Source of the DNA: a virus
Taxonomy: Duplodnaviria; Caudoviricetes
Length of the DNA: 57,164 bases
Reading direction: 5' to 3' (one strand)
IMG/VR virus record: IMGVR_UViG_3300004369_000017
Coordinates: 1-57,164 of that record
The notes under the pieces were generated by a model. It saw only the letters and a program-made list of their open reading frames with translations, was not told where the DNA came from and searched no databases. A program made the position numbers and the translations under genes. Each line of letters begins with the position of its first letter. Within the stretch, counting starts at the first letter, position 1. Shown here piece after piece: positions 43,753 to 57,164 of this stretch.

Positions 43753-45741
43753 TTAATCGTAAATACCTTCCATTGCCTCAGTAAACCAAGATGGCCCTGT
43801 GTAGTTACAAAGGTCTTCTACTCCCGGCATTGTCTCTGATCCAGCAAAACCGCCATAGAATTCATAGTCCGCAACATCTGGCGTTCTTTCCATTACTCTA
43901 GCAGCCATGTTTGCCATGATAAGAGCTGAATAACGGTCCTTTCTCATACGATCCTTCTTGCCGACAGCAACTACCGTTTCAGGCACATCCCACCTATCTC
44001 GTCCAGCGACAGTTTGAGTCATTTGAATGATGGATAGCTCATCCTTTAAATCTTCTATCTCCATAAAGCATTCTTCCAAAGTGTCATACATGCGGCCTTT
44101 GAATGAGTCTTCAACATTAGACAAGCCAAAGGACACGCCGTCAAATGCTGGGAATAATGTGGTTCTATCTTCAAAGTCTTTTCTTAAGCCGTGATTTGCT
44201 TCTGCTAGCCAGTCTGCTTTTGCAAATTGGCATAACTCAAGAATATGAAGACCTTTGTTTCCATCTGTATCCTTTTCTTTATCTAGATCAATAGTAGGCC
44301 AAATTGGAAGTTCTCCCTCTTTTATCTTATCTTGATCATGCAGAGCCTCTGATACAGCAATGCCGCCCCCCTGTGCATCCATAGCTATATGAACACATGG
44401 AAACCTTTGCATTAAATCACGTATCTTACGAGCACAGTACGAATAAAAATCAGTCTCGCTTACATACCCCTTCTTAACACGGTCTTTGTGTTCTGACCTA
44501 TTAGTCGTCCAACAGTGAACTATACGTCTATGATCAGAATTTACTTCAATAATTACGATACTGAAATTGTCAACTTCAGAAGCTGGGTCGATACCAAAAA
44601 CATATTTTTTCTCACTATGGCCAATAAGCTTTGGGTTGAACATGATGATTTCACCATTGCTGTCTAAGATAGGGTCTTCTTCGTTACAGACACAAGACTC
44701 AATCAATGATCTCTTAAAGAACCCTTGAGAATCTCTTGTAAATGTAGCCCCATATTCCATCTGGTAAATTCCTGAGTGAACAGTGGCCTTAGATCGAGCA
44801 ACCTGTGCCGCGTCCATAAATCCTTCTGGAAGGAGTTCGTAAGGGATTCGAATAATAGAGTACTCATTCCACTTGAAGTCTTTTGGAACCTCTTCTCCAC
44901 CGAAAATCTCCTGTAATCTGTCTGGATGCCCACCACTTCTAATAAACGACTTCCATCGTTTCCAGTACGTAGCAAAGTGATTGAAGTCATAGTAAGCGGT
45001 TCCAGAAAGTATAATTTGATTATGTTTAGCTCCTACAGAGTTGTCTGTATCCTGCTCAATGATAATTCCCATTTCTTTAGCTTTTTTCTGAGCCGCAATC
45101 CTTTTCACGTTTCCAATAGGATCAGCACTGACAGCCGCAAAACCAGCAACAACAGTTTCAAAAATATCTCTGGGAATAGAAGCAAACTCGTCACTGATAA
45201 TATCATTGGCACGTTGACCACGAATTTTTTGACCATCACCTAATGGTAAACAGGTAACTCTACTTTCGTTGATTCTTAGAACGCATCTGTCCATTTCCCG
45301 ACGTGGACCACTATTTTCACTGCACATACTTCTGAGCATAGGAGCATTATTCCACACTGTTTCCATATACTCAAACAGCACTTTAGACTGACGGAAAGCA
45401 GCTCCAACAATAACCACCTTACGCTTTGGGAGTATCAAGGCTCTAAGGATAGCATACAAAGCCAGCATGAATGACTTACCAAAACCACGAGAGGCAATCA
45501 ACATAGGAAAACGCCTATTCCACATCTCATGCAAAATCACCGCTTGAGAAGGAAGAATCTGAATATTCAAGACGTGCTTACATAAAAAAGAGAAATACTC
45601 AGGGCGAGTCATTAGGTAAATGAGCTTTAAGTGATATTCAGAGTCGTCAGCTTTGATAATACTTGTAGGGTTGAATAGCTCTTTATCTTGAAAATCTATA
45701 CCAAGCCAAGCATCTTCTATTGATTTTAGTTCTAAGCTCAT
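43753..45741 (-). CDS. terL: Terminase large subunit
   Basis: Walker A 'ASRGFGKS', Walker B 'RGQRANDIISDEF', RNase H-like 'FGIDPA' and C-terminal 'KDRYSA'. Confidence 0.95.
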   Translation of the reverse strand: MSLELKSIEDAWLGIDFQDKELFNPTSIIKADDSEYHLKLIYLMTRPEYFSFLCKHVLNIQILPSQAVILHEMWNRRFPMLIASRGFGKSFMLALYAILRALILPKRKVVIVGAAFRQSKVLFEYMETVWNNAPMLRSMCSENSGPRREMDRCVLRINESRVTCLPLGDGQKIRGQRANDIISDEFASIPRDIFETVVAGFAAVSADPIGNVKRIAAQKKAKEMGIIIEQDTDNSVGAKHNQIILSGTAYYDFNHFATYWKRWKSFIRSGGHPDRLQEIFGGEEVPKDFKWNEYSIIRIPYELLPEGFMDAAQVARSKATVHSGIYQMEYGATFTRDSQGFFKRSLIESCVCNEEDPILDSNGEIIMFNPKLIGHSEKKYVFGIDPASEVDNFSIVIIEVNSDHRRIVHCWTTNRSEHKDRVKKGYVSETDFYSYCARKIRDLMQRFPCVHIAMDAQGGGIAVSEALHDQDKIKEGELPIWPTIDLDKEKDTDGNKGLHILELCQFAKADWLAEANHGLRKDFEDRTTLFPAFDGVSFGLSNVEDSFKGRMYDTLEECFMEIEDLKDELSIIQMTQTVAGRDRWDVPETVVAVGKKDRMRKDRYSALIMANMAARVMERTPDVADYEFYGGFAGSETMPGVEDLCNYTGPSWFTEAMEGIYD

Positions 45742-46343
45742 TTAACAACCTCATCAGCAAAACCGTAATAAACAATCTCGTCCCCAAACATATACCAATC
45801 GCCATCTTTCATTTTTCTCCTTAGGAAGCTTTTCACTTGTCGCTCTGTAGGGATACCGTATTTATCCTTAGCCCATTTGCTTTTCAGCATTTTTTCGACA
45901 TATATGTCAACCATTTGATCTACAATGGTTTTCTGCCACTGTGAAGTAGTTTGCATGGTCTGATAATCACCGTCAAAATAACAGCTACCGTAATGACACA
46001 TGAAGTAAGAATACTTAGACACCACTCTATGATCGGCGGATTGTAGGATTACACTACTCATTGACTCAGCTTGGCCACGAACTCTGATTGTAACAGGAGC
46101 TTTTGATTCTCTGATAGCTTCAAAGATAATCATTCCAGCAGACCATTCACCTCCAATGAGACTCATCTCCACAGTAATAGGAAGCTTTCCTCCAGTATTC
46201 AGAATGTGGATGTTTTTCAAAAAAGTATCCGCTACTCTATGCTCTACGCCAGCATCCACTCCACTATCATCATGAGATTGGAGGTAGATGACTCTGTTAT
46301 CGACATCAATATTGTGATCGTGAATATTGTCAATTGCAGCCAT
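45738..46343 (-). CDS. ClpP-like serine protease
   Basis: 'NRVIYL...PITVEMSLIGGEWSAGMIIFEAI...GQAESMSSVILQ...FMCH...DGDWYM..DE.V.YGFADEV'. The Ser/His/Asp triad positions are present. Confidence 0.88.
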   Translation of the reverse strand: MAAIDNIHDHNIDVDNRVIYLQSHDDSGVDAGVEHRVADTFLKNIHILNTGGKLPITVEMSLIGGEWSAGMIIFEAIRESKAPVTIRVRGQAESMSSVILQSADHRVVSKYSYFMCHYGSCYFDGDYQTMQTTSQWQKTIVDQMVDIYVEKMLKSKWAKDKYGIPTERQVKSFLRRKMKDGDWYMFGDEIVYYGFADEVVK

Positions 46344-46348
46344 TTTCT

Positions 46349-46846
46349 CTATTCCTCGTCTAAAAGGTAAAGTTCAGCCATTCTCTTGAAAATACTGGAT
46401 ATAGTTTTCATAGACGCCATTCTAGAACCACAGAATAATAGGTGTACGCCATACTTGATCTGTATTTCCATTAAAGACTTGAGCATGAACGCTCCCGTCA
46501 TACGTACTTCATTTCTTTTGATATGAGGCACTCTAGAACCGGCGTGATTAGGGAAATCTAACAATTGCTGTAGAGTGAATTCCATTAGAATTATCTTATG
46601 GTCAAATGTCTGCATTCTCTCTATTTCCCTCATAAAGCGAGGCTTCTCTTTTCCAAGATTAATAGCCATTTCTTCTGGAGAAGCTTTTCTCTCAATACAG
46701 AGCTTCTTCTCAAGCCCCCTTAAGGTATAGTCTCCGGTATCTAATTTCTTACACACCATCCCCATACATTTGTACTGATCATTTTTCGAAAATGTGTATC
46801 CATCAGTCTCTCTAGTATCTTTGATAACTATGTAACTCTTAGCCAT
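46349..46846 (-). CDS. ERCC4/XPF-family nuclease
   Basis: 'DTRE...LDTGDYT...IERKAS..E' signature. Confidence 0.85.
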   Translation of the reverse strand: MAKSYIVIKDTRETDGYTFSKNDQYKCMGMVCKKLDTGDYTLRGLEKKLCIERKASPEEMAINLGKEKPRFMREIERMQTFDHKIILMEFTLQQLLDFPNHAGSRVPHIKRNEVRMTGAFMLKSLMEIQIKYGVHLLFCGSRMASMKTISSIFKRMAELYLLDEE

Positions 46847-47108: not shown

Positions 47109-47356
47109 GTTGGAGCAAAAACCTTTATAACTCTGATATCCTGCATCATATCTCTGCACATTAACTTATTCTCTATTGAGTCATCCTGACTTAGGATATG
47201 ATTGATTAGCCTTGAAGTGGCCTGATGACACGCGTCATCTGGGTCTTTAGCTTCGACAAAAATGATAGGTCTCTCAGTTGCATATTCTTTGAGAGAAAAC
47301 TTTTTCAATCTCGACAACGCTAATTGTAAACAAAGCTCGACTTTGTAAATGATCAT
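47105..47356 (-). CDS. Hypothetical protein
   Basis: 83 aa with ATGA overlaps at both ends. Confidence 0.7.
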   Translation of the reverse strand: MIIYKVELCLQLALSRLKKFSLKEYATERPIIFVEAKDPDDACHQATSRLINHILSQDDSIENKLMCRDMMQDIRVIKVFAPT

Positions 47357-48465
47357 TTGATGTCATGCTGAACCATTTTATGGACCAGCTCCTCAAAGGA
47401 ATGCTTAGGGGTCCATCCTAACTGCTCATACGCCTTCCTATTAATCCCTCTCAAGTAATCTACTTCTGCTGGGCGATAGAACTCAGGATCGACAACTACA
47501 TAATTCTGCCATCCTTCCAAGCCCGCTGATTTAAAAGCCGCGTCTAGAAAATCGCGAATTGTATGAGTCTCACCTGTGCAAATGACATAATCATCAGGCT
47601 TTTCCTGTTGAAGCATCATCCACATGGCTTCCACATAGTCTCCTGCGTACCCCCAATCACGAAATGCTTCGAGGTTCCCTAAACGCAGCTTGGGAAATTG
47701 AAAACCCTGCTCTCTATTGAGTCTGCCGGGACAATACAACTCCTCTTTTATATTGCAGCCAATAGATTTTTTTGGATCTATATTGACTTTCTTACACCAT
47801 CTAATATAATCGCCAATCCACTTGGTTATTTTTCTGGTTACGAAATTTTCGCCACGCCTCGGACCTTCATGATTGAACAAAATGCCACTGCTCGCATGAA
47901 CGCCATACGCCTCGCGGAATAATCTAGTCATGTAGTGAGCTGCGCACTTTGCAATAGCATAAGGAGACTGAGGCATAAACTTGGTATCTTCATCTTGGTA
48001 TTTGATTGTTTCTGTAGAAGTTCCGTTAAAAGGAGCTTCCAAGTCAACTGGAACTACCATTTCATCAAAGTTTTTACCAAACATCTCGCTTGAGCTTGCT
48101 TGATAAAACCTGCATTCCAACTTGAGGTCAACAATAGATTGTAGAATGTTTAGATTTCCCTTGCCGGTAATATCCCACGTTAAAGCTGGTTGTTTAAACG
48201 ATATAGCTACATGAGATTGGGCTGCAAGGTTGTAAACTTCAATTGCATCTGAATGCTGCCTCAGAATATTCATGACACTAAACTGATCAGTAATATCACC
48301 ACTAGTCACCATGAAATTTTCAGATTGACATAGATGTGCAATTCTACCCTCGTTATCAGAAGAAGCTCTACGTGCAACTCCTACTACCGTATACCCCTTA
48401 TCTAGTAAAAGTTCTGATAAGTGGCTTCCGTCCTGTCCAGTTACTCCAAAAATAATAGCTTTCAT
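47353..48465 (-). CDS. gmd: GDP-mannose 4,6-dehydratase
   Basis: 'GVTGQDGSHL', 'YNLAAQSHV', 'FYQASSSEMFG', 'PQSPYAIAK', 'GILFNHEGPRRGENFVTRKIT', 'LGNLEAFRDWG'. Confidence 0.96.
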   Translation of the reverse strand: MKAIIFGVTGQDGSHLSELLLDKGYTVVGVARRASSDNEGRIAHLCQSENFMVTSGDITDQFSVMNILRQHSDAIEVYNLAAQSHVAISFKQPALTWDITGKGNLNILQSIVDLKLECRFYQASSSEMFGKNFDEMVVPVDLEAPFNGTSTETIKYQDEDTKFMPQSPYAIAKCAAHYMTRLFREAYGVHASSGILFNHEGPRRGENFVTRKITKWIGDYIRWCKKVNIDPKKSIGCNIKEELYCPGRLNREQGFQFPKLRLGNLEAFRDWGYAGDYVEAMWMMLQQEKPDDYVICTGETHTIRDFLDAAFKSAGLEGWQNYVVVDPEFYRPAEVDYLRGINRKAYEQLGWTPKHSFEELVHKMVQHDIK

Positions 48466-49265
48466 TAATCTACCACCTTATATGATTTAGCTGATTCCGG
48501 TGTCAAAAACGGTTGATCTACAAACCCGTCTGTGAATTCATGAGGCTGAGACAATCTTTCTCTTTCTTTATTCATTGCAAGTCTCATTTTTTCCATATCT
48601 ACCCCATACTCTTTAATGATCTCTGGATTTTTGATCAAGTACAATATCCAGTCTTTGAAATTCTCTTTGCTGTCTTCAAGCTTTTTTACTCGCTGCTCTC
48701 TGGTTGCTCGCATTTCTTTCAACATGCCATTCTTTTTAACCTGCATGTCACGATAGTCTCTATTCATGGACTCCTGAGAGGCTCTGAGAGACGATATCTG
48801 ACGTTCAGAGTTCATGATGAGTTCTCTATCCTGTTGGCTGATGTCTTGATGTCTCTCGATCAACACGAGCCTCTCAAGTAGCTCAATCTGCTCCATACCT
48901 GAGCGATTCATCTTCAAGCAGCGATTCATAAGCAATTCAAGCTTGATCAGGTCGACCACCTGCAACTCTTCTGTTGGTGTTACATCATCCCTAAACTGAG
49001 AAACGATTCTAGACCAATGGTAGACAAACAAGTCTAACTCAGATTGTGCAAACTGCTGTGTAATTTCATACCAGTATGGACGCTCTTTAAGATCAAAAAC
49101 AGCAGATTCTTCTTCTGATACTTGAAGCCTCACCTTTCTCTTTACAAAGTTTTCTACAGAAAGTGGGTCTCTGTCAAGGTGTGTCGCAATTTCGTCTACA
49201 GTTTGGCTTGTTGCATTCTCAAGCATGTAGTCCATTTCTTCACGAGAAAATCTACCCTTCTTCAT
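48465..49265 (-). CDS. HTH plus coiled-coil protein, candidate terminase small subunit
   Basis: N-terminal 'GRFSREE...TVDEIATHLDRDPLSV' HTH-like segment and a long coiled coil, upstream of terL. Start moved to follow the GGGAG RBS. Confidence 0.45.
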   Translation of the reverse strand: MKKGRFSREEMDYMLENATSQTVDEIATHLDRDPLSVENFVKRKVRLQVSEEESAVFDLKERPYWYEITQQFAQSELDLFVYHWSRIVSQFRDDVTPTEELQVVDLIKLELLMNRCLKMNRSGMEQIELLERLVLIERHQDISQQDRELIMNSERQISSLRASQESMNRDYRDMQVKKNGMLKEMRATREQRVKKLEDSKENFKDWILYLIKNPEIIKEYGVDMEKMRLAMNKERERLSQPHEFTDGFVDQPFLTPESAKSYKVVD

Positions 49266-49779
49266 CTTCATTCTCCCTGTCAATGCCAAACTCAACTAAA
49301 ATAGCCTTGACTTCATCCATCACTTGCTCTCTTCGCTTTTTAGGTAGATATGCATCGTTTACTACTTTTAAATAGTCCATACGTAGAGAAGCGGGTAAGT
49401 GACGGTCAACCAGACTTTTCATCGCAGCCATATCCAAAGCGTGAGAATCCACTTTAAATTTTTCACTACCGTCAAGTAGTAGGTCTTCATTATCAAGCTG
49501 TGCTGGCTGTATGATTTTACCTTTATCGGAACTTGGATCGTTATGATGGTTGTCTCTTACGAAGTTCTTTAAGCGGTTAGAGAGATGTACGGCTAAAAAG
49601 TTCTCCAACGGCTTTCCGGGGTGGTAACGAGGCAAGGCTTCCATACATATAATAAACGCTTCCTGCTGCAAGTCAGCTACTACAAAGCCGGGAAATACAT
49701 AATTATGGGCAATCCTATTCACGACCCTAGTGATTGTATCCACTACTTCATCTTTTTCCATTCCTTCTGGTACTAACAT
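49252..49779 (-). CDS. Sigma-70-like factor (region 2 recognisable)
   Basis: 'VNRIAHNY...DLQQEAFIICMEALPRY......LENFLAVHLSNRLKNFVRD' matches sigma region 2. A region 4 HTH is not evident. Confidence 0.7.
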   Translation of the reverse strand: MLVPEGMEKDEVVDTITRVVNRIAHNYVFPGFVVADLQQEAFIICMEALPRYHPGKPLENFLAVHLSNRLKNFVRDNHHNDPSSDKGKIIQPAQLDNEDLLLDGSEKFKVDSHALDMAAMKSLVDRHLPASLRMDYLKVVNDAYLPKKRREQVMDEVKAILVEFGIDRENEDEEG

Positions 49780-49780
49780 A

Positions 49781-50551
49781 CTATTCCTCCGTTTTTATCT
49801 TTAGCCATTTATCACCAGTTCCTAATTCAAGACATTTTGAATCACTGTTATAGATAATAGTTGCCTCGGAAGGTTCCGGCCTATTGCTATTGTTGAATGG
49901 TTTAAGTTTTATTGAAGAAATTGACAGACCAGATTTGTTAACAAGCGATAGTAGCTTAGTTCTTAGCTCAATAGCACCTTCATGTTTCGAAATTGCCCCA
50001 ATGATATCTTTAGCAGTGAGTATCTCTAATAGCTCCCCACTGTCAATGGATTGTATCCTGCCGTCGAGCCTTCCAAGAAGTGTCTTTTCAGGTAACTCAA
50101 CAGGCGTGGGAGTTTGCGGGGAACTGGAACATAAGACTGAATATGCCCCCTGTAGAGCCTCATTGTAGGAAGGAGGTAAATACGTAGAGATGGTTATGTG
50201 GGTGTCAAGCTCAGAAAACGTCACCCTCCTACCCGGAATGAGAGGGGTCATCTGGTATCCATCCCAATAGGACAGGGGTGTATTGCGTACTAGGTATATA
50301 GGGGATGGTTGTTTGTTTTTAGTTCTTTGCTTTAATAGATAGCCCACTCCCCTCTCACATTGTACTAACCTATTAGCTTTATATTGCTGTATCTCGTAGA
50401 AGAAGTTCTGATCAAAGCCTACTTCTTGTTCAATCCCTGTTGTGAAATACTCCCCACGTAGATCATTGAAATTCTTGAGTAACGCAGGAGAGTCTAGCTT
50501 TAAATTAGTGGAGTCTTTTACAAGTACTCCTAAAGATAGCCCCTTAGTCAT
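49781..50551 (-). CDS. Hypothetical protein
   Basis: Start moved to ATG 50551 (MTKGLSLG), overlapping the end of a small upstream ORF. C-terminal 'TIIYNSDSKCLE...WL' resembles fibre modules. Confidence 0.65.
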   Translation of the reverse strand: MTKGLSLGVLVKDSTNLKLDSPALLKNFNDLRGEYFTTGIEQEVGFDQNFFYEIQQYKANRLVQCERGVGYLLKQRTKNKQPSPIYLVRNTPLSYWDGYQMTPLIPGRRVTFSELDTHITISTYLPPSYNEALQGAYSVLCSSSPQTPTPVELPEKTLLGRLDGRIQSIDSGELLEILTAKDIIGAISKHEGAIELRTKLLSLVNKSGLSISSIKLKPFNNSNRPEPSEATIIYNSDSKCLELGTGDKWLKIKTEE

Positions 50552-50690
50552 TCTGTTCATCCTCTTCTGAATCAAGCAAATCAGCGAGAGACTTGTCAGG
50601 GGCGGTTAGCTCTTGTTCGATCTCACACTCAAGGGACGCGGTTGCTTTGCAGCACAACTCAGAACTACAGGTTTGCGGTGTTTTCTTCAT
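50544..50690 (-). CDS. 48-aa acidic, Cys-containing protein; first gene of the late cluster
   Basis: GAGGAG RBS. MKKTPQTCSSELCCKATASLECEIEQELTAPDKSLADLLDSEEDEQND. Below the ORF-track size cut-off. Confidence 0.65.
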   Translation of the reverse strand: MKKTPQTCSSELCCKATASLECEIEQELTAPDKSLADLLDSEEDEQND

Positions 50691-50747
50691 TTTAGCTCCT
50701 CTTTTTAAACTATTTTGAGAATCTTACAACATTTCATACACTTTTTG

Positions 50748-50776
50748 TTGACAGATGACGAAACTTAGACTATAAC
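50748..50776 (+). promoter_or_regulatory. Sigma70-type promoter, divergent from the late cluster
   Basis: TTGACA-17 bp-TATAAC. Confidence 0.65.
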
Positions 50777-50779
50777 TAG

Positions 50780-51040
50780 TGGCGAGTATTCAGAACTTCG
50801 CCGTTTCTGAAAATATGTCTAGTTAAGCAATCTGGTGTCTGAGACGTACCAGCGAGGGGCTTCCCTCTGAGTCAGGAACGAGCAGGGGATGGTTAGGGGT
50901 GGAGAGCTAGTGATCACAAACTAGTAAACCTGTGGCAGTGCAAGTAGGGAGTGAACCTTCTCCCCACACCGTAGAAGGCACTGGTGGGTTGCCCGCTAAT
51001 GAGTATCTTGATTACCAGAGGCTCACGCTTCTATGGTGGT
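50780..51040 (+). ncRNA. Candidate structured non-coding RNA or long leader
   Basis: GC-rich, with no ORF in the track, directly after a promoter. At least six stems and two possible pseudoknots. Confidence 0.5.
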
Positions 51041-51054
51041 AAAAGGGACGTGGT

Positions 51055-51264
51055 ATGCACAATGATAATGAAGAAATAGACGGTCTTATGTCGCAAGTCA
51101 GGTTGTTAACTGACTGGAAGGGTTTCTACGATATTAAAAATCCCATAACTCTAAGGTATGTTTTTAATGTTCACACAGGAAGAGGTCTATCTAATAACGA
51201 CTGGCTGTTCTACACTCTTCCACTCTATGCAAGGAGCGCGCCATGTCGCCGTAAAATACAGTAA
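51055..51264 (+). CDS. Hypothetical protein
   Basis: 69 aa, AGGGA RBS, TAATG-coupled to the next ORF. Confidence 0.5.
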   Translation: MHNDNEEIDGLMSQVRLLTDWKGFYDIKNPITLRYVFNVHTGRGLSNNDWLFYTLPLYARSAPCRRKIQ

Positions 51265-51491
51265 TGAAAATTCTAATGAATCAAATAAAAAAAAGGAACG
51301 GTGTACAAAGAACCATGAAAGAACATTTAGCAGATCTACTTAAAGCCAACCTAAATATCTGCTTCCAAAACATTTCATCTGACCTATTCTATAGAAATAG
51401 ACAGTTACATGCTAAGAATATCGATAAGTTAGGCTACAGGCTTTTTAACGGTCAAAGCGACATGCTAATAGCCGCATATAGGATGAATTAG
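51264..51491 (+). CDS. Hypothetical protein
   Basis: 75 aa, tightly packed with its neighbours. Confidence 0.45.
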   Translation: MKILMNQIKKRNGVQRTMKEHLADLLKANLNICFQNISSDLFYRNRQLHAKNIDKLGYRLFNGQSDMLIAAYRMN

Positions 51492-51701
51492 ATGCCACAT
51501 AAAATGCTCTATGAAGAAGATTACTTAAAACGTAGTTGTTTTAGACAATTTGCTGGGATTAATACTACAAGAGCTAGTATGCTCCAGAATGGAATGATTG
51601 TAAATATACCAGATATACTAAAAGGTAAAACCGCACACCCTCTTGGGATAATATCACTAATTCTTACAGGTAGATTTAGAAAAGTTGTTGTGTCATCTTG
51701 A
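51492..51701 (+). CDS. Hypothetical protein
   Basis: 69 aa. ATG immediately follows the previous TAG. Confidence 0.4.
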   Translation: MPHKMLYEEDYLKRSCFRQFAGINTTRASMLQNGMIVNIPDILKGKTAHPLGIISLILTGRFRKVVVSS

Positions 51702-51750
51702 AGAAGCACGAAGTTTATTACAACACAAAAAACAAGACAATAAGAAATAA

Positions 51751-52536
51751 ATGAAACAATATTGGTTCTTCGCCAACAACGAACTCACAGTTAAGTACAA
51801 AGAGTATTGTGACATGACTCTTGCAATGCTGGCGAGTCAATCCATCAATGCCCCCGACTTAATCCCCCTCATGATATATGATGGTGAGCCTTGCGAGTTT
51901 ACTAGGCTCGTAGAGGAATCAGGGGCAACCATCCTGTATCACAAATATTCCCTCATTGACACTATTGCGGAGAACCCACTGTGGGAAGATGTGCGGTTCC
52001 AAAGAATTACTCGCGGCACCTATCTACGTCTCGATATCCCCACCTTGTTTGAGAAGCATCAACTCAACTCATCCCTCCCCGTCTTGTATACAGACATTGA
52101 CGTTATCTTCCTGCGTCAGCCGCCGCCCTTTGAACTTGGAAACGCCCCCTTTGCATGTGCTCCAGAATTTGACAAAGAAGACTACTGTAACATCAACGCG
52201 GGGGTTATGTACATAAATATAGAGGGGATGTCGCAAACTCGCCACGCCCTCTGTAAGTATATCAAACAGCACCACTTAGACACAACCGCCTATGATCAGG
52301 GGATTTTACGAGGGTTTTATACTGGACAATGGGGGCATCTGCCGATAGAATACAACTGGAAGCCCTATTGGGGGATCAATGAAAACGCCCTACTTGTACA
52401 TTACCACGGTCCCAAAGCTTTCATGAGGGGCAGTCAGCACGTAGAAAATAGCATCAAAGATTTGCAAGTAGGCGGCTACGCCTACTACTGTGGAGTCTAC
52501 GATGCCTACCTGAACATATTCAACAGGGTGTCATAA
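51751..52536 (+). CDS. Family 8 glycosyltransferase
   Basis: 'TYLRLDIP...VLYTDIDVIF...INAGVMYIN...DQGIL...LPIEYNW...HYHGPK'. Confidence 0.9.
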   Translation: MKQYWFFANNELTVKYKEYCDMTLAMLASQSINAPDLIPLMIYDGEPCEFTRLVEESGATILYHKYSLIDTIAENPLWEDVRFQRITRGTYLRLDIPTLFEKHQLNSSLPVLYTDIDVIFLRQPPPFELGNAPFACAPEFDKEDYCNINAGVMYINIEGMSQTRHALCKYIKQHHLDTTAYDQGILRGFYTGQWGHLPIEYNWKPYWGINENALLVHYHGPKAFMRGSQHVENSIKDLQVGGYAYYCGVYDAYLNIFNRVS

Positions 52537-52539
52537 ACA

Positions 52540-52758
52540 ATGTCTGAAAAAGTCTTTTTCAAGCTTAAGGATAGTCTAGGCATATTTAATTCGTGGCTGT
52601 TTTTCACTGTATATGAACAGAAAAGGGGCATTATGATGAATACGTTTCGCACACCTCTGTATGTAGAATCAGAAAATATGATGGAAGATGAAATTAAGCT
52701 ACGCGAGTTGCAGTCGTGGTACATGTCGCCTGCCAGCGATTCAGAGGGTGCCGAATGA
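52540..52758 (+). CDS. Hypothetical protein (true start may be 52633)
   Basis: ORF follows the GT8 gene. An AGGGG RBS precedes the internal ATG. Confidence 0.3.
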   Translation: MSEKVFFKLKDSLGIFNSWLFFTVYEQKRGIMMNTFRTPLYVESENMMEDEIKLRELQSWYMSPASDSEGAE

Positions 52759-52938
52759 GGCAATGGGCGAGGATTAGAAAATACATTTCCGAGGGGCCGA
52801 GTGAAGATGTATGGACCACCCCGCGTTTTTGGACAGATTCAGACACATTCCGATCTGAAGATAAAACCCCACCCTAGTTGTACAGTGTACAAACGCATTT
52901 TATTTGTAAAATTCTGAGAAAATACTTGCTTTTACCTG

Positions 52939-52967
52939 TGGATTCAGCTCTGAAAATACGATATAAT
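52939..52967 (+). promoter_or_regulatory. Early-type promoter
   Basis: TGGATT-17-TATAAT with AT-rich upstream sequence. The -35 is weak. Confidence 0.5.
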
Positions 52968-53009
52968 ACTTAGACGCGAGTGACAAACACATAACATCGG
53001 AGAGAAGCA

Positions 53010-53159
53010 GTGTTCGGAATCACCAAAGAGCAGCAACTCATTTTGAATGAACTCATGCGGGACGGATTCGAATGTCACGTTGATAAGAATGGTTGGACGA
53101 TTGGCGGTCAAACGTTCAGCACCCTTGAAGAAGCTCTAGAATACGCGGGGACGCTCTAA
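53010..53159 (+). CDS. 49-aa microprotein, VDxxGW family member 1
   Basis: GGAGA RBS and GTG start. MFGITKEQQLILNELMRDGFECHVDKNGWTIGGQTFSTLEEALEYAGTL. Confidence 0.75.
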   Translation: MFGITKEQQLILNELMRDGFECHVDKNGWTIGGQTFSTLEEALEYAGTL

Positions 53160-53254
53160 TGTACGAATCGATTCAGGATGCCATGCCGTTTGTGTTTGGT
53201 GCAATGTCTTTTCTGGCAATCATGATGTTTCTGGAAAATAAAGAAATTCTTTAA
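53159..53254 (+). CDS. 31-aa hydrophobic (single transmembrane-like) peptide
   Basis: TAATG-coupled. MYESIQDAMPFVFGAMSFLAIMMFLENKEIL. Confidence 0.55.
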   Translation: MYESIQDAMPFVFGAMSFLAIMMFLENKEIL

Positions 53255-53262
53255 GATTAGAC

Positions 53263-53290
53263 TTGCACCGTTGACGATAGTTGTTATAAT
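53263..53290 (+). promoter_or_regulatory. Early-type promoter
   Basis: TTGCAC-16-TATAAT with an extended TG, followed by ACACTCTCACA. Confidence 0.65.
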
Positions 53291-53322
53291 ACACTCTCAC
53301 AAGCAACGAACCAAAGAAAACA

Positions 53323-53496
53323 ATGATGATTACTGAAACCCACGACAACAAACAGTACACTGGCCGAACTTCACTTGACATTGCTTTGCAGGTTGCGAGT
53401 GATCGCGATGACGCCAGCCGCCAGCAGCGACGTTACAACCGTCGCCCATATGTTGGGCAGAAATGCTCTGAAGATCGTAAACTGAGGAACAAATGA
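53323..53496 (+). CDS. 57-aa hypothetical protein
   Basis: MMITETHDNKQYTGRTSLDIALQ...; ATGA overlap with the next gene. Confidence 0.6.
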   Translation: MMITETHDNKQYTGRTSLDIALQVASDRDDASRQQRRYNRRPYVGQKCSEDRKLRNK

Positions 53497-53675
53497 TTCA
53501 CCCGCAAGATCAGCTTATCGTGGACAGGATGTTCCGCGATGGGTTTGAGTTGAAGATTGTGAAAAACGGTTGGCAATTGATTGATCCAATGGGGGGGAAA
53601 CAAACGTTCTCAACATTTGGATTATTGAAGCAAGCAAACCCCTGTTATTGGAATGATGAACATGCGTCACGATGA
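53493..53675 (+). CDS. 60-aa microprotein, VDxxGW family member 2
   Basis: GAGGA RBS. 'QLIVDRMFRDGFELKIVKNGWQL....GGKQTFSTF' aligns with member 1. Confidence 0.75.
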   Translation: MIHPQDQLIVDRMFRDGFELKIVKNGWQLIDPMGGKQTFSTFGLLKQANPCYWNDEHASR

Positions 53676-54150
53676 ACTGAGAGAATTGATTACTGCTCAC
53701 GAAAACTGTACTATACAGGCGGCTCGCGACCATATCGCGAAGGCTATCCGTGTTCTGGTAAATGCTGAGTTCACGGATGGCCAGTCTATCCGTGACAGGA
53801 TTATCGAAGTATATAATGAAGGAGCAGGAAGGCATTTCATTGCCGCCATTCGTGAATATCGTTCACTGACAGAAGCAAGTCTTAAAGATGCCAAGCACAA
53901 GGTAGAAGAAATCACAGGCCACAAGCCAATTGATCCTAAGATTTCTATCTCTTTGCAAGAGTTTCAAAGTCTTGATCAGGGAGTCGCCTGCAAACCCGAC
54001 AATATCCGCCTCGGACAGGCGTACATGATTGAACTATATAAGCTCAGTCCAGCAATATACAATCTAGTAATAGCTAAGGGGCTGGACTGCTTCCATGAAG
54101 ACGACAAGTATGCCGCCGTGAGACTGTTTGTTCACGACTTTATCAAGTAG
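53653..54150 (+). CDS. Protein with a ribosomal bL12 (L7/L12) C-terminal-like domain
   Basis: 'FIAAIREYRSLTEASLKDAKHKVE' resembles the bL12 motif 'KI.VIK.VR..TGL.LKEAK..VE'. Confidence 0.65.
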   Translation: MMNMRHDELRELITAHENCTIQAARDHIAKAIRVLVNAEFTDGQSIRDRIIEVYNEGAGRHFIAAIREYRSLTEASLKDAKHKVEEITGHKPIDPKISISLQEFQSLDQGVACKPDNIRLGQAYMIELYKLSPAIYNLVIAKGLDCFHEDDKYAAVRLFVHDFIK

Positions 54151-54209
54151 CGTCTCATCTTAACCACCAGCCTAGCCCGCTGGCGAGTCTGTTTATTCAA
54201 TTCCAGAAT

Positions 54210-54259
54210 AAATCGGCCCGCCAAAATTGTTGTAAGTCTATACGCTGTAACGACTTGCG
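54210..54259. repeat. Dispersed ~50-bp repeat, copy 1
   Basis: AAATCGGCCCGCCAAAATTGTT then GTAAGTCTATA-cgctg-TAACGACTTGC. Confidence 0.85.
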
Positions 54260-54310
54260 TTGACAAAATAAAAACTTTTTATTTCTTTCTGTTTTTCTAT
54301 TGCTTTGGGG

Positions 54311-54338
54311 TTGTGAGTGTCGATAGATAGAGTATAAT
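54311..54338 (+). promoter_or_regulatory. Early-type promoter
   Basis: TTGTGA-16-TATAAT. Related in sequence to the promoter at 56485. Confidence 0.6.
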
Positions 54339-54387
54339 ACGCTTATCAGAAACAACAATTTGTTACAAATGACTCAGGAGAAACACG

Positions 54388-54534
54388 ATGACGACTTCAC
54401 TCACACAAGCACAGCGAATCACCCTGATGGAATTGCGACGACAAAACGCTGACATGTACGTTGATAGTTACGGTTGGTGGTTGCAAGGCGTTGTCTATCC
54501 TACGCTGGAAGCTCTGCTGAATGCTGCTGGCTAA
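54388..54534 (+). CDS. 48-aa microprotein, VDxxGW family member 3
   Basis: CAGGAG RBS. MTTSLTQAQRITLMELRRQNADMYVDSYGWWLQGVVYPTLEALLNAAG. Confidence 0.75.
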   Translation: MTTSLTQAQRITLMELRRQNADMYVDSYGWWLQGVVYPTLEALLNAAG

Positions 54535-54559
54535 TTGTGAAAATTATTCGAAACCAAGC

Positions 54560-54588
54560 TTGACATTGCAAACGCTATCGATTAGAAT
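54560..54588 (+). promoter_or_regulatory. Early-type promoter
   Basis: TTGACA-17-TAGAAT. Confidence 0.8.
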
Positions 54589-54612
54589 ACCCCTTCACAG
54601 CAACCAACCCTT

Positions 54613-54756
54613 TGGAGAGTTACCATGGAAGCTACCCACATTGATGACATTCTGACCGCTGAAGAAAAGGCTGCACGAGAGTTCTGGGGGGTTACGATGG
54701 AAGATACCCACATTGATGACATTCTGACCGCTGACGAAAAGGCTGCACGAGAGTTC
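54613..54756 (+). repeat. 72-bp near-perfect tandem duplication that includes the RBS and start codon
   Basis: 54613-54684 and 54685-54756 differ at only a few positions. Confidence 0.9.
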
Positions 54757-54843
54757 GCCGAATACTTTGAAGAATTTGGGCGAATTGAACGTGAGAACAA
54801 TGACTCAAAAGAATTGATTGAAGAAATGGAAAATTTCTTCTAA
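54625..54843 (+). CDS. Very acidic 72-aa protein
   Basis: GGAG RBS and its own promoter. Duplicated 'MExTHIDDILTAxEKAAREF'. Confidence 0.75.
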   Translation: MEATHIDDILTAEEKAAREFWGVTMEDTHIDDILTADEKAAREFAEYFEEFGRIERENNDSKELIEEMENFF

Positions 54844-54850
54844 AACAGGG

Positions 54851-54879
54851 TTGACGGGCTACAGTGGGGCGGTTATAAT
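54851..54879 (+). promoter_or_regulatory. Early-type promoter
   Basis: TTGACG-17-TATAAT, with the -10 box flanked by the GGCGGT/ACCGCC inverted repeat. Confidence 0.8.
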
Positions 54880-54925
54880 ACCGCCTCACCTTTCTCACTT
54901 GTACTACACCATACGGAAAGCTGTC

Positions 54926-55105
54926 ATGAACGATCTTAACGCGCTGCACCTTGACAACACAGATTTCTGGTCTGACATTGAATTCTGGATGGATTCTGTC
55001 CACTTTTGGACAAACCAACTTACTAAGTATGGCGACAAAAACGGTTTCTACGCTAAGTTGATTAAACAGGCGTGGGGACAGGTCGATTATTACCTATTCG
55101 GCTGA
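54926..55105 (+). CDS. 59-aa hypothetical protein
   Basis: Start moved to ATG 54926 (MNDLNALHLD), downstream of the promoter. Confidence 0.65.
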   Translation: MNDLNALHLDNTDFWSDIEFWMDSVHFWTNQLTKYGDKNGFYAKLIKQAWGQVDYYLFG

Positions 55106-55132
55106 TCACTAAACCGATGGCTTGCAATGTGC

Positions 55133-55186
55133 AAAAAATCGGCCCCGCCAAAATTGCCGTAACTCCTGTGATGGTAACGACTTACG
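55133..55186. repeat. Dispersed ~50-bp repeat, copy 2
   Basis: AAAAAATCGGCCCCGCCAAAATTGCC then GTAACTCCTGT-gatgg-TAACGACTTAC. Confidence 0.85.
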
Positions 55187-55232
55187 AGGAGTATTTTCTT
55201 TTTATTTTTTTTCATTTTCTTATGGCTTAGGC

Positions 55233-55261
55233 TTGACTTAGCAGAGCAAATAGACGATAAT
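55233..55261 (+). promoter_or_regulatory. Early-type promoter
   Basis: TTGACT-17-GATAAT after a T-rich tract. Confidence 0.65.
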
Positions 55262-55300
55262 ACGTATATAATAAACAATCACAATCACGAGAGAAACACA

Positions 55301-55516
55301 ATGCTAATCAAGACACGCGGACTGACAGTTGGTAGTATCATGGCTTCTGGCGAAAAGGTGATCGGCACCAACGAAGAAGATCACTACTATACAGGCAAAC
55401 CAGTGCTCAGAGTGGTACTAAGCAAAGAAGTTGACGGCGGCTACAAGAATCGTGTCGCCTACTGGAATCTGAACGGAAATGTTTTTGTCAAACAGCTTGC
55501 AACCCGCTTTGCTTGA
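55301..55516 (+). CDS. Hypothetical protein
   Basis: 71 aa, lying between two promoters. Confidence 0.7.
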   Translation: MLIKTRGLTVGSIMASGEKVIGTNEEDHYYTGKPVLRVVLSKEVDGGYKNRVAYWNLNGNVFVKQLATRFA

Positions 55517-55518
55517 GC

Positions 55519-55547
55519 TTGACAGACAAGCCAGATTCGACTACAAT
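55519..55547 (+). promoter_or_regulatory. Early-type promoter
   Basis: TTGACA-17-TACAAT, followed by ACGCTCTCACAG. Confidence 0.8.
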
Positions 55548-55586
55548 ACGCTCTCACAGTAACTAACTCAAACAGGACGCAAGAAG

Positions 55587-55796
55587 ATGCCACGACCAGA
55601 AAAGAACCTTTGGTATTCAGTACGTATTGACGGCGTTGTCCCCAGCGATTTCTCACAGGAACTCGATTTCCTGATGGTCGCACAATACGAGGGGTGCAAC
55701 TACGAAGTGGCTGATCAGTCACAATTCGACGGTGCATATGACAGGGGCAGGGGTAAGAATATCCTAAAATTCAAATTTGTTGAGATGTTCGGTTGA
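55587..55796 (+). CDS. Hypothetical protein
   Basis: 69 aa, CAGGA RBS, own promoter. Confidence 0.7.
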   Translation: MPRPEKNLWYSVRIDGVVPSDFSQELDFLMVAQYEGCNYEVADQSQFDGAYDRGRGKNILKFKFVEMFG

Positions 55797-55821
55797 AAGC
55801 CAGAAACGGTTCCGCTATAAT
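55793..55821 (+). promoter_or_regulatory. Early-type promoter
   Basis: TTGAAA-17-TATAAT, followed by ACGCCCTCACAG. Confidence 0.8.
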
Positions 55822-55857
55822 ACGCCCTCACAGTTAACACCTCACAGGAACGCTACT

Positions 55858-56271
55858 ATGTCACAGTCACCGCTGAATATCGTCGCCCTTCGCCAAGAAT
55901 GCCTTGAAGCAATGGCACAAGCAATCTGTATCCCCAACAGCTACCTCGCTCCAGAGTTTCGGAATAATCGCAAAGTAAGCGGAAAGATGGGTGAGGATGA
56001 TTCTGTACAGCGTGAACAGTCGCAGAGCATCGCGACAATTCTCCGAAAGGTTGAACAAGCCGAACTGATCGCCGCTCTGAAAGACGCCCCAAGCGAAGCT
56101 GAACTGCTGAAGCAAACTCGATTGTCACGGATTGAAAGTTATGCTGAGCAGTTTGACGCAAGCGAATCCTTTGAATACAACGTAGATGAAGACCTACTAT
56201 ACAGACGACAGCTTGAATTTGCTAATGCGATTGGTATGGAATTTGATGAAGAGGATTCTTGGGGTGAATAA
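55858..56271 (+). CDS. Acidic hypothetical protein (137 aa)
   Basis: Start moved to ATG 55858 (MSQSPL), with a CAGGA RBS downstream of the promoter. Confidence 0.7.
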   Translation: MSQSPLNIVALRQECLEAMAQAICIPNSYLAPEFRNNRKVSGKMGEDDSVQREQSQSIATILRKVEQAELIAALKDAPSEAELLKQTRLSRIESYAEQFDASESFEYNVDEDLLYRRQLEFANAIGMEFDEEDSWGE

Positions 56272-56410
56272 GGTTTGGCAGATTGTATGGCTGGACATGG
56301 GCACCGGCAGGATAAAGCCGGTGCATAAAATGATCAACAACTTTCCAACACTGTACAGAAATACGGTTGCCGATCCGTCAAAAAAATCGGCCCGGACAAA
56401 TTTGTCATAA
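56264..56410 (+). CDS. Small hypothetical protein
   Basis: GAGGA RBS and a GTG start overlapping the end of the previous gene. Runs into repeat copy 3. Confidence 0.35.
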   Translation: MNKVWQIVWLDMGTGRIKPVHKMINNFPTLYRNTVADPSKKSARTNLS

Positions 56411-56434
56411 GTCTATATGACACAACAACTTACA
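56381..56434. repeat. Dispersed ~50-bp repeat, copy 3
   Basis: AAAAAATCGGCCCGGACAAATTTGTC then ATAAGTCTATA-tgaca-CAACAACTTAC. Confidence 0.8.
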
Positions 56435-56484
56435 ACGGCTTTTAGAAAATTTCAAATTCTTTGTGAAATTATTAGTGTCTGGGG

Positions 56485-56513
56485 TTGCACAGTGTCGATA
56501 CTAAGTGTATAAT
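56485..56513 (+). promoter_or_regulatory. Early-type promoter
   Basis: TTGCAC-17-TATAAT. Confidence 0.75.
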
Positions 56514-56551
56514 GCGTCTTCACAAGAACGACAGCCAACAAGGAAACAAAG

Positions 56552-56710
56552 ATGTTCAACCTGAGTAAATCTGAAAAAGCGGTTTTCGGCAAGCTGGTTT
56601 CCAATGGCAACGACCTGCACGTCGATGGTTCTGGCTGGCACTTTAACGAGATGGTTTTCGAATCTTTTCGGGAATTCTGGAAATTCTGTCAAGATCAGCT
56701 TGACAAATGA
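56552..56710 (+). CDS. 52-aa microprotein, VDxxGW family member 4
   Basis: AAGGA RBS. MFNLSKSEKAVFGKLVSNGNDLHVDGSGWHFNEMVFESFREFWKFCQDQLDK. Confidence 0.75.
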   Translation: MFNLSKSEKAVFGKLVSNGNDLHVDGSGWHFNEMVFESFREFWKFCQDQLDK

Positions 56711-56728
56711 CGGTCACTGTAGTACAAT
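56700..56728 (+). promoter_or_regulatory. Early-type promoter
   Basis: TTGACA-17-TACAAT. Confidence 0.8.
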
Positions 56729-56761
56729 ACAAGCACAAGAAACAACATCACTCAGGAGAAA

Positions 56762-56995
56762 ATGATGACACCCATCACAAGTCGAGAGATTCCAGAAGGT
56801 TTCCAACTTGATTGGAATTCAGAAACGTGGAACGTTGGGTTCGTGTTTGTCTGGTCTGAAGTGTTTGAAGGTTACTTACAACAGGGGCAGATCACCGTGA
56901 AACCCGGTGATACGCTGTCAGAAGCGTTTGAGCGGGCAGTTGGTGAACCGTTGTTCTCTGATCGTGAAGTATTCTTTGTAAAGGAACAGGCATGA
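56762..56995 (+). CDS. Hypothetical protein
   Basis: 77 aa, CAGGAG RBS. Confidence 0.7.
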   Translation: MMTPITSREIPEGFQLDWNSETWNVGFVFVWSEVFEGYLQQGQITVKPGDTLSEAFERAVGEPLFSDREVFFVKEQA

Positions 56996-57164
56996 AAAAA
57001 GTCGCCCACTATGCTTTCCCCGGTGGTTATCAAATGTTCTATTATGTGGAATCTGACGATGGTAAGTTCCACAGTTGTCCATCATGTGTAAATCAGAACC
57101 GTATCGGCAAGAATGTCGATTGTTGCAAGGGGCATATCAATTATGAGGATGATACGCTTTTCTG
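56992..57164 (+). CDS. Cys-containing hypothetical protein, partial
   Basis: ATGA overlap with the previous gene. MKKVAHYAFPGGYQMFYYVESDDGKFHSCPSC... is open to the window end. Confidence 0.65.
   Translation, partial: MKKVAHYAFPGGYQMFYYVESDDGKFHSCPSCVNQNRIGKNVDCCKGHINYEDDTLF

Follow-up and report, generated by a model that had tools for sequence, protein, structure and literature searches.

Covariation in the intergenic regions of IMG/VR has yielded 8495 candidate structured RNAs of 29–151 nucleotides (nt), as described by Fremin et al. (2023; PMC10690425). In the lambdoid phage HK022, the putRNA (putL and putR) is described as a cis-acting antitermination RNA (PMC9378689), and the PeSL elements of T4-type phages, as presented by Arbiol et al. 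(2010; PMC2839356), combine a promoter with one terminator stem-loop and are repeated many times per genome. GOLLD and ROOL are large ornate RNAs, often carried by phages, whose biochemical role is given as unknown (bioRxiv 10.1101/2024.12.08.627333). Here we analyze a structured RNA encoded by the viral contig IMGVR_UViG_3300004369_000017, the whole 57,164-nt stretch of which (completeness estimate, 34%) is called the window. The RNA extends over positions 50784–51058 of the plus strand (about 275 nt, both ends approximate). By sequence comparison it is a real, conserved RNA that belongs to a previously uncatalogued family, which we rate as a new RNA class; the family numbers 37 or more distinct sequences in four clades, all of them from uncultured aquatic phages. 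The comparison supports a fold of about 12 helices, among which are two pseudoknots, one of the H type in the 5′ part and a long-range one in the 3′ part.

The homologues were collected in two rounds. A sigma-like protein encoded beside the RNA (window 49252–49779, minus strand) has 137 relatives in IMG/VR, and the best 80 of the 137 loci were kept for searches; with nhmmer, the RNA region was found in 8 of the 80, every time on the strand opposite the sigma gene. In IMG/VR, a DNA pattern drawn from the 5′ part recovered the same 7 contigs and no others, and in metagenomes it gave 20 stretches, 12 of which were true by nhmmer. When bacterial and archaeal genomes were scanned with the 5′ motif, the single find was a stretch of a Fusobacterium contig, which gave no model match and was dismissed as chance. 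The first homologue set comprised 13 distinct sequences, namely clade I (the window and four others), clade II (six), L038 and L045, with 38–53% identity between clades. A model built on clade I alone (R1) was too narrow, since it gave clade II members 24–41 bits and missed L038, and its alignments were excluded from the pair counts. A pattern drawn from the 3′ part found 48 stretches in IMG/VR, and 42 of these 48 loci were searched with a 3′-domain model (R2, whose own alignment retained the MAFFT registers), the 6 others being already in the set. Full-model matches of 54–103 bits were obtained in 30 of the 42 loci and none in the other 12. The 30 include L045's own contig; the remaining 29 loci contributed 24 new distinct sequences, all of the L045 type (clade III). 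Searching the remaining sigma loci with R2 gave nothing further (next best match, E 0.048). The window and two further records that were searched in full contain a single copy of the RNA each. R2 did not detect it in five relatives with 94–100% completeness, while two positive-control records matched once each.

The fold is carried by covariation. In a cross-clade MAFFT alignment (A7), helices PA and PB and the core of PC stood in register; their 21 pairs were 98.4% paired, and 12 of them were altered on both sides. None of 500 shuffles reached the observed values on four of five measures, the exception being the count of further pair types, which was reached by 402 of the 500. When the partners were slid, 31–50% of the cells were paired and at most 3 pairs were altered on both sides. 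A plain MAFFT alignment of clade III (A12; 25 sequences), the register of which was not fitted to the structure and which serves as an independent check, contained 56 pairs in 10 helices with 96.8% of the cells paired, and 17 of the 56 pairs were altered on both sides. Again, on four of the five measures no shuffle out of 500 came up to what was observed (for further pair types, all 500 did), and slid partners were paired in 33–44% of the cells. The covariation sought for the element is strong in two independent alignments. Because MAFFT sets the short hairpins one or two columns out of register across clades, PK1, P2, P4, PF and P5 were tabulated by hand in 13 sequences; all pairs were canonical, against 61–80% paired for non-cognate strand combinations, in a table that is fitted to the structure and has to be weighed accordingly. 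The same displacement of the hairpins explains why RNAalifold, run on the first MAFFT alignment, recovered only PA, PB and a fragment of P4.

The pairing also identifies the strand, because the G-U pairs in PA, PB and PC would read A-C on the other one, and the RNA is therefore assigned to the plus strand. Conservation spans the region from the −10 box to GUGGUAUGCA and falls off afterwards. It is hardly credible that the region encodes no functional RNA and is instead a small coding region, a DNA element such as an origin with a primer RNA, or a product of chance complementarity. Such an explanation could draw on a folding energy equal to that of shuffled sequences and on the minimum of the cumulative GC (guanine–cytosine) skew, which lies near 50.0 kb at the strand switch. 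It is at odds with compensatory changes that include G-U pairs on one strand, with inter-clade indels that are not multiples of three, and with the lack of any reading frame open across the members, whose longest stop-free runs (16–84 codons) lie in differing frames. The five near-complete relatives without the RNA argue against an essential origin.

The 3′ part is built from the stacked long-range helices PA, PB and PF with the side hairpins P4 and P5. PA pairs 50892–50900 with 50991–51000, leaving a bulge at 50995, and all nine of its positions were paired in 13 of 13 sequences; the long-range helix PB pairs 50927–50931 with 50986–50990. Together, PA and PB (50892–51000) enclose P4, PF, P5 and the 5′ strand of PC. 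Across clades, 6 of 8 pairs changed on both sides in PA and 3 of 5 in PB, and within clade III PA was 100% paired, with 3 pairs changed on both sides. Hairpins P4 and P5 had been seen in the preliminary description of this DNA and both are borne out. P4 (50907–50924; CUAGU/ACUAG with a conserved AUCAC-type loop) occurs in 6 variants among the first 13 sequences, all of them canonical, and in 7 within clade III, where 3 of its 5 pairs are altered on both sides. P5 (50947–50964; GGGAG/CUCCC) alternates with GUGAG/CUCAC and, in one clade III member, with GUGGG/CCCAC. PF (50936–50983; CAGUGC 50936–50941 with GCACUG 50978–50983) encloses P5 and the 5′ strand of PC and exists in six sequence versions among the first 13. 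On a segment alignment, 5 of its pairs were 100% paired and 3 of these 5 were altered on both sides; in clade III, 2 of 6 pairs were. PF takes the CUG that had earlier been assigned to ACCAG 51014–51018, and it replaces that pairing: outside clade I, CTGGT/ACCAG (50981–50985 with 51014–51018) forms at most 3 of 5 pairs, and the second crossing pair proposed with it, TGAG/CTCA, at most 2 of 4.

The long stem CCGTAGAAG/CTTCTATGG (PC; 50967–50977 with 51028–51038), also predicted earlier, was recovered in four sequence versions with a family-wide core at 50969–50977 and 51028–51036. Its in-register part (50969–50975 with 51030–51036) was 98.8% paired, with 3 of 7 pairs altered on both sides, and it is invariant within clade III. 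PC crosses PA, PB and PF, and since it crosses PA and PB it forms a true pseudoknot, in which the loop of hairpin PH pairs with the junction strand inside PF. PH (51012–51042; UUACC 51012–51016 with GGUAA 51038–51042) holds the 3′ strand of PC in its loop and joins a pyrimidine motif between PA and PC to a purine motif 1–3 nt past the PC 3′ strand. Its variants are UACCC/GGGUA, UGCCC/GGGUA, UAUCCU/AGGAUA, ACCCU/AGGGU and CUUCUU/AAGGAG; it is 93.2% paired in clade III, and when tabulated across clades, in a register that is hand-fitted, its pairs are all canonical. UACCA 51013–51017 with UGGUA 51051–51055 had been considered as the last helix and was superseded by PH, which covaries. The 3′ end is formed by a conserved tail (51043–51058; AAAGGGACGUGGUAUG), in which AAAAG(G/C)...G(U/G)GGU is conserved in all clades. 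In the window, a likely ribosome site falls within this tail, as does the start codon (51055) of a 69-amino-acid (aa) open reading frame (ORF; 51055–51264).

In the 5′ part, a hairpin is followed by an H-type pseudoknot and then by a second, variable hairpin. The pseudoknot (50817–50852) is made of PK1, which joins GUCUAG 50817–50822 to CU(G)AGAC 50839–50845, and P2, which joins CUGGU 50832–50836 to ACCAG 50848–50852, with an A-rich linker between the strands. All pairs of both helices were canonical in 13 of 13 sequences, with four variants per helix, in registers that are hand-fitted; a partial tool count over the in-register columns, with L045 out of register, gave 91.8% paired. PK1 is fully canonical in every clade, as GUCUAG/CU(G)AGAC in clade I, GCCUAG/CUAGGC in clade II and L038, and GUCACA/UGUGGC or GUCACG/CGUGGC in clade III. 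The outer stem of P2 had been drawn correctly; the inner GTC/GAC extension given to it is not conserved, and the loop pairs instead with GUCUAG 50817–50822. A mini-ORF (AUG GCC UAG) over the clade II PK1 5′ strand was discarded, its AUG being AUC in L038 and absent in clade III.

Upstream of the pseudoknot lies the P1 hairpin (50789–50811; UUCAGAA/UUCUGAA). This pairing was foreseen and covaries within clade I, where one compensatory change gives UCCAGAA/UUCUGGA; in the other clades the 5′ hairpin differs, by eye, in sequence and placement. GGCGA/TCGCC, which had been proposed to form a pseudoknot with it, is not sustained: within clade I its sequence does not vary, L003 and L098 have it shortened through a 1-nt deletion, and elsewhere it is missing. 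Its 5′ strand begins only 4 nt past the −10 box, so that part of it is probably untranscribed. Downstream, the variable region holds hairpin P3 (50854–50867; GAGGG/CCCUC), which likewise stands within clade I, where it covaries (GGAGAAC/GUUCUCC, GAGGAC/GUUCUC), with no equivalent established in other clades; clade III has an additional hairpin capped by GUAA or GCAA. A purine-rich linker (50868–50891), for which pairing is not established, ends in a conserved GAUGG, and GAU(G/U)G precedes PA in all members. The structure as first drawn lacked four helices (PA, PB, PF and PH) and the true 5′ pseudoknot PK1/P2. Three clade III members (L138, L141 and L142) have, by eye, a swapped 5′ pseudoknot, GGACA/UG(U)UCC with GCCC/GGGC, next to a typical 3′ domain, and the 5′ module may therefore be exchangeable.

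Comparison with Rfam 15 (4227 models) at gathering score gave no match in the whole window and none in 12 loci with members of clades I and II, L038 and L045. With permissive filters, the best hit in the window had an E value of 0.97, and all hits were far below gathering score and none covered the RNA; one clade III and one clade II member gave no match at E≤1. ARAGORN found no tRNA or tmRNA gene in the window, in agreement with the first reading of the sequence, and a literature search turned up no description of the RNA; judged by title, none of 6 papers that contain "DUF1289" deals with an RNA motif. The absence of Rfam matches together with the strong covariation supports the earlier proposal of an undescribed phage non-coding RNA, ribozyme or regulatory leader, the structure drawn for it having been partly right.

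Catalysis is common among large RNAs that combine pseudoknots with strongly conserved junction nucleotides, and the strand order of this RNA (PA...PC5′ PF3′ PB3′ PA3′...PC3′) produces a crossing like that of P3/P7 in group I introns. These features, and the endonuclease genes that follow the RNA in several loci, would suit a self-cleaving or end-modifying ribozyme that processes the 5′ end of the early message or frees itself from it. We nevertheless consider this unlikely. No Rfam 15 ribozyme model matched, even at E≤1–10; the RNA starts at a promoter and has no exons; no conserved cleavage-site motif could be named; and clade I, L106 and most of clade III have no such endonuclease genes.

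The position of the RNA is constant: it is always the first rightward element, behind a −10 box and back to back with the sigma-like operon. In the window, leftward genes extend up to ~50.7 kb, and beyond them lie small rightward genes behind several strong sigma-70-type promoters. The promoter of the RNA (50749–50777, plus strand) consists of TTGACA at 50749–50754, a 17-nt spacer and TATAAC at 50772–50777, just as the preliminary description had it, and the higher GC content reported there was found as well (0.53 in 50800–50999 versus 0.36–0.42 around). The complementary segments that it quotes also all lie where it places them. Judging from the sequence, the RNA probably starts about 7 nt downstream of the −10 box. 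A CTATAA(C/T) −10 box is aligned directly upstream of the RNA in 13 of the 13 first homologues; a simple promoter scanner overlooks the RNA's promoter because it demands a T at position 6 of the −10 hexamer. Relatives that lack the RNA have the same early-promoter consensus, with small genes directly after it. In its long form, this consensus reads TTGACAAATGACGATA..TAGTATA(A/T)(A/T)(T/C) and is repeated before small genes in L016, L048, L054, L055, L057, L047, L028, L019, L017 and L012.

The sigma-like operon is divergent from the RNA in the 7 first loci and in 26 of the 29 later ones, with 2 more showing the operon's first genes and 1 having no room for it, and sigma-protein identity falls to ~32% in the later loci. 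In some clade III loci the sigma gene is the direct neighbour of the RNA, because the 48-aa and 264-aa genes are absent there; it starts ~370 nt from the RNA in L120, L113/L147, L127, L122/L134, L149/L124 and L137. The 264-aa neighbour has BLAST matches in 61 of the 80 sigma loci, with or without the RNA, while a pattern search gave no relatives. The first gene of the leftward operon in the window (50544–50690, minus strand) is an acidic, cysteine-containing 48-aa ORF, which has tblastn matches in 50 of 80 related loci and is therefore a real small gene.

Downstream of the RNA the genes vary by clade, with five different arrangements, and the RNA is independent of the identity of the gene that follows. 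In most loci an ORF with its own ribosome site begins 0–70 nt past the RNA with no terminator between, and in the window and the rest of clade I small ORFs follow. In clade II and L045, HNH genes start 12–20 nt past the RNA (L060, L032, L092, L037 and L045), the five copies being homologous; a related HNH gene follows in L120, an unrelated GIY-YIG/HNH gene occupies the same spot in L056, and L106 has none. These endonuclease genes (L056:1139–2563, L037:1903–2586, L032:1385–2230, L060:1355–2137 and L045:1075–1962, all on the minus strand, and the one in L120) lie 12–28 nt past the RNA. The HNH proteins have HNH and zinc-finger features, and neither they nor the GIY-YIG/HNH protein has a RuvC domain. 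In view of these sequences, the HNH genes read as free-standing homing endonucleases that have landed beside a conserved RNA gene. The RNA gene looks like a homing site for endonuclease genes in several lineages.

That the RNA is a guide or cofactor of the HNH endonucleases, in the manner of IscB and its omega RNA, is very improbable. The homologous proteins so close behind the RNA, and their absence from five complete RNA-less genomes, are what one would look for in a partner, and the window, which has the RNA, also lacks the protein. Most members, including the window's clade, are without such a gene; the protein family is very large (2202 matches at E≤1e-5) and has no RuvC; in L045 and L120 the gene is inserted between the RNA and a DUF1289 gene; and the GIY-YIG/HNH gene in L056 is unrelated.

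The DUF1289 gene is characteristic of clade III. It encodes a 65-aa four-cysteine protein, one representative of which matches DUF1289 (PF06945, E 3e-13, 49.8 bits versus a cut-off of 27). In 18 loci no other ORF stands between this gene and the RNA, and in 8 (including L045) one gene of 150–300 codons is inserted there; 4 loci are too short to tell. Behind the DUF1289 gene comes a 50-aa lysine-rich, zinc-ribbon-like ORF (MKKKKKKPPF...C.CGT), the two forming a conserved pair (e.g., L127:8159–8356, plus strand). This association, and the position of PH and PC next to the ribosome site, would suit a ligand-sensing riboswitch that controls the next gene, in clade III that of the cysteine-rich DUF1289 protein. 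We regard such a switch as improbable, considering that the core of the RNA persists in the window and in 19 loci of clades I and II and L038, where no DUF1289-type motif was found, and that in 8 loci an inserted gene lies between the RNA and the DUF1289 gene. Coherence of the downstream gene is confined to clade III; clades I and II lack the DUF1289 gene, and neither switching helices nor an alternative terminator/anti-terminator pairing was found.

Of the functions considered, we tentatively put first, at somewhat less than even confidence, that the RNA is a cis-acting leader of the first early transcript. The host RNA polymerase would transcribe it early, at the head of the first rightward transcript, and it would probably act through its fold, in cis on its own transcript, as a leader module that works whichever gene follows. 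Our best guess is that the likeliest effect would be to protect the transcribing polymerase or the transcript against termination or decay, or to set how the first gene is translated. The RNA is kept while the next gene changes, which argues against gene-specific control and fits an operon-level leader. Most members run into a gene without a terminator and any gene is tolerated there, which fits operon-level control of processivity, stability or translation.

Several findings weigh against the leader. No plus-strand terminator was predicted in window 50600–57164, so antitermination would have no visible target there. L038 and L091 have a terminator-like hairpin with a U run 60–85 nt past the RNA, uncalled by a simple scanner. 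In L038 the hairpin and U run are followed by a new early-type promoter with no gene between, and in L091 ~230 nt that include such a hairpin separate the RNA from an ORF that abuts the RNA in L003. Both hairpins fit a stand-alone RNA gene at least as well as a target for read-through. Known leader stabilisers and put RNAs get by with far fewer than about 12 helices. The RNA is accessory and dispensable, since five near-complete relatives are without it. In a quick tree of the sigma-like and 276-aa proteins, the RNA label has to change 4 times, with two sister loci, L010 and L036, too short to score. The folding energy is not exceptional: the minimum free energy of −87.8 kcal/mol compares with −85.5 ± 5.1 for shuffles (z −0.44; 75 of 200 shuffles as good), and the minus strand gives z −0.29. 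The energy check suggested at the outset thus went against the element, and the case for an RNA rests on covariation rather than stability. The cross-clade hairpin registers are hand-fitted, and with only about four deep lineages some of the counts rest on few independent events. Finally, none of the sequencing runs listed with the window stretch is recorded as RNA; three DNA runs of one study contain it and may be where it came from.

It is possible, and nearly as likely as a leader, that the RNA acts in trans as a stand-alone early RNA, made or processed as a separate, stable species with a fold that recognises a protein of the host or the phage; its target might be RNA polymerase or the expression machinery, or a host defence component for which it would be a decoy, or it might self-assemble. 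RNA polymerase is a candidate partner because of the fixed place of the RNA beside the sigma-like operon. All members examined for a promoter have one of their own, and the terminator-like hairpins with U runs in L038 and L091, the fresh promoter in the former and the ~230-nt insert in the latter are as expected for a separate gene. So are the five downstream arrangements, with inserts before the DUF1289 gene in 8 loci. Its size, pseudoknots and GNRA-capped clade III hairpin bring the RNA closer to ribonucleoprotein RNAs and ornate RNAs than to leaders, and accessory status is typical of host-takeover functions. Conversely, most members run without a terminator straight into a gene that has its own ribosome site, and no co-occurring partner emerged, the 48-aa, 264-aa and sigma-like proteins being present in RNA-less relatives also.

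Whether in cis or in trans, we see a doubtful but real chance that these RNAs make up a new class, large phage RNAs with a catalytic role or an action on the transcription machinery, kept through deep divergence as the first early product beside the sigma-like operon. Few large RNAs have many covarying helices and pseudoknots, and those that have been solved are usually ribozymes, riboswitches, ribonucleoprotein cores or self-assembling particles. If the proposal is right, the RNA could bind the host RNA polymerase, whether in cis, as put does, or in trans, as 6S RNA does, and aid the handover of transcription to the phage; alternatively, early messages could have their 5′ end modified by the RNA acting as a ribozyme. 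To our knowledge, neither a polymerase-binding nor a 5′-modifying RNA mechanism is known for any large DNA phage. A whole group of aquatic phages, abundant and uncultured, probably makes this RNA as soon as infection begins, and it can be synthesised and probed without a phage culture.

The phages that carry the RNA form an uncultured, aquatic group with genomes of ~150–175 kb. The leftward genes of the window (minus strand) encode a large terminase, two giant ORFs, a ClpP-like protease, an ERCC4 nuclease, a GDP-mannose dehydratase, a 276-aa protein, the sigma-like protein (175 aa, with sigma-70 region 2), the 264-aa protein and the conserved 48-aa ORF. The terminase is 26–27% identical to those of Bacillus phages, the portal and capsid candidates of the window have no PHROG match, and a "T4-like" label is on these grounds unsupported. 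The DNA of the RNA region had no match in the phage collection, and the sigma-like and 276-aa proteins had none among 50,697 phage records; the lineage is uncultured. The giant ORFs, of 3711 aa (1891–13026, minus strand) and 2050 aa (13029–19181, minus strand), lie in the structural module. The GDP-mannose 4,6-dehydratase (47353–48465), ERCC4-type nuclease (46349–46846) and ClpP-like protease (45738–46343), all on the minus strand, stand between the regulatory genes and the terminase, an unusual set for a phage packaging module. Between 54.5 and 56.7 kb (region 54311–56728, plus strand) there are at least 5 sigma-70-type promoters of 11-of-12, an array that recalls PeSL-type cassettes.

Known systems offer the RNA parallels in organization, but it has the defining features of none of those it was tested against. 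Phage non-coding RNAs transcribed from early promoters include phi29 pRNA and T4 rnaC/rnaD; the RNA does not match the pRNA model, differs in genome type and context, has no tRNA cluster and is missing from five near-complete relatives. HEARO, or IscB omega RNA, is a structured RNA of some 200–300 nt upstream of an HNH-domain gene, which resembles our RNA in size and in the HNH gene behind it in some loci; the latter has no Rfam match to it, its HNH proteins have no RuvC, and most members are without an HNH gene. Of a group I intron, only the crossing order of the helices is reminiscent, as there is neither an Rfam match nor a flanking 5′ exon, the RNA beginning within ~10 nt of the −10 box. 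GOLLD and ROOL, at ~600–800 nt, are found near tRNA genes. Like them, the RNA is large, intricate and phage-carried; it is much smaller and does not match their Rfam models.

The covariation candidates of Fremin et al. (PMC10690425) come from the same kind of viral contigs, and some are described as lying consistently upstream of genes. With lengths given as 29–151 nt, they are shorter than the ~275-nt RNA, short pieces of which may be among the 8495. With PeSL as described (PMC2839356), the RNA shares strong sigma-70-like early promoters and a variable region of non-essential early genes, and the hairpin, U run and early-type promoter past the RNA in L038 are PeSL-like. The RNA differs from that definition in being an element of ~275 nt, present once in each record searched, with covarying long-range helices.

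Among the nearest analogues is also put, and here the contrast is one of scale. By its functional definition, a put-type antiterminator binds, while still nascent, the polymerase that is transcribing it and suppresses pausing and termination further on. A put element has ~70 nt and two hairpins, whereas the RNA has ~275 nt, about 12 helices and pseudoknots, bears no sequence likeness to put and has no terminators predicted downstream in the window. Both are phage elements close behind early promoters, and put is described as folding while it is being made and as acting by its structure on its own transcription unit, whatever genes follow (PMC9378689).

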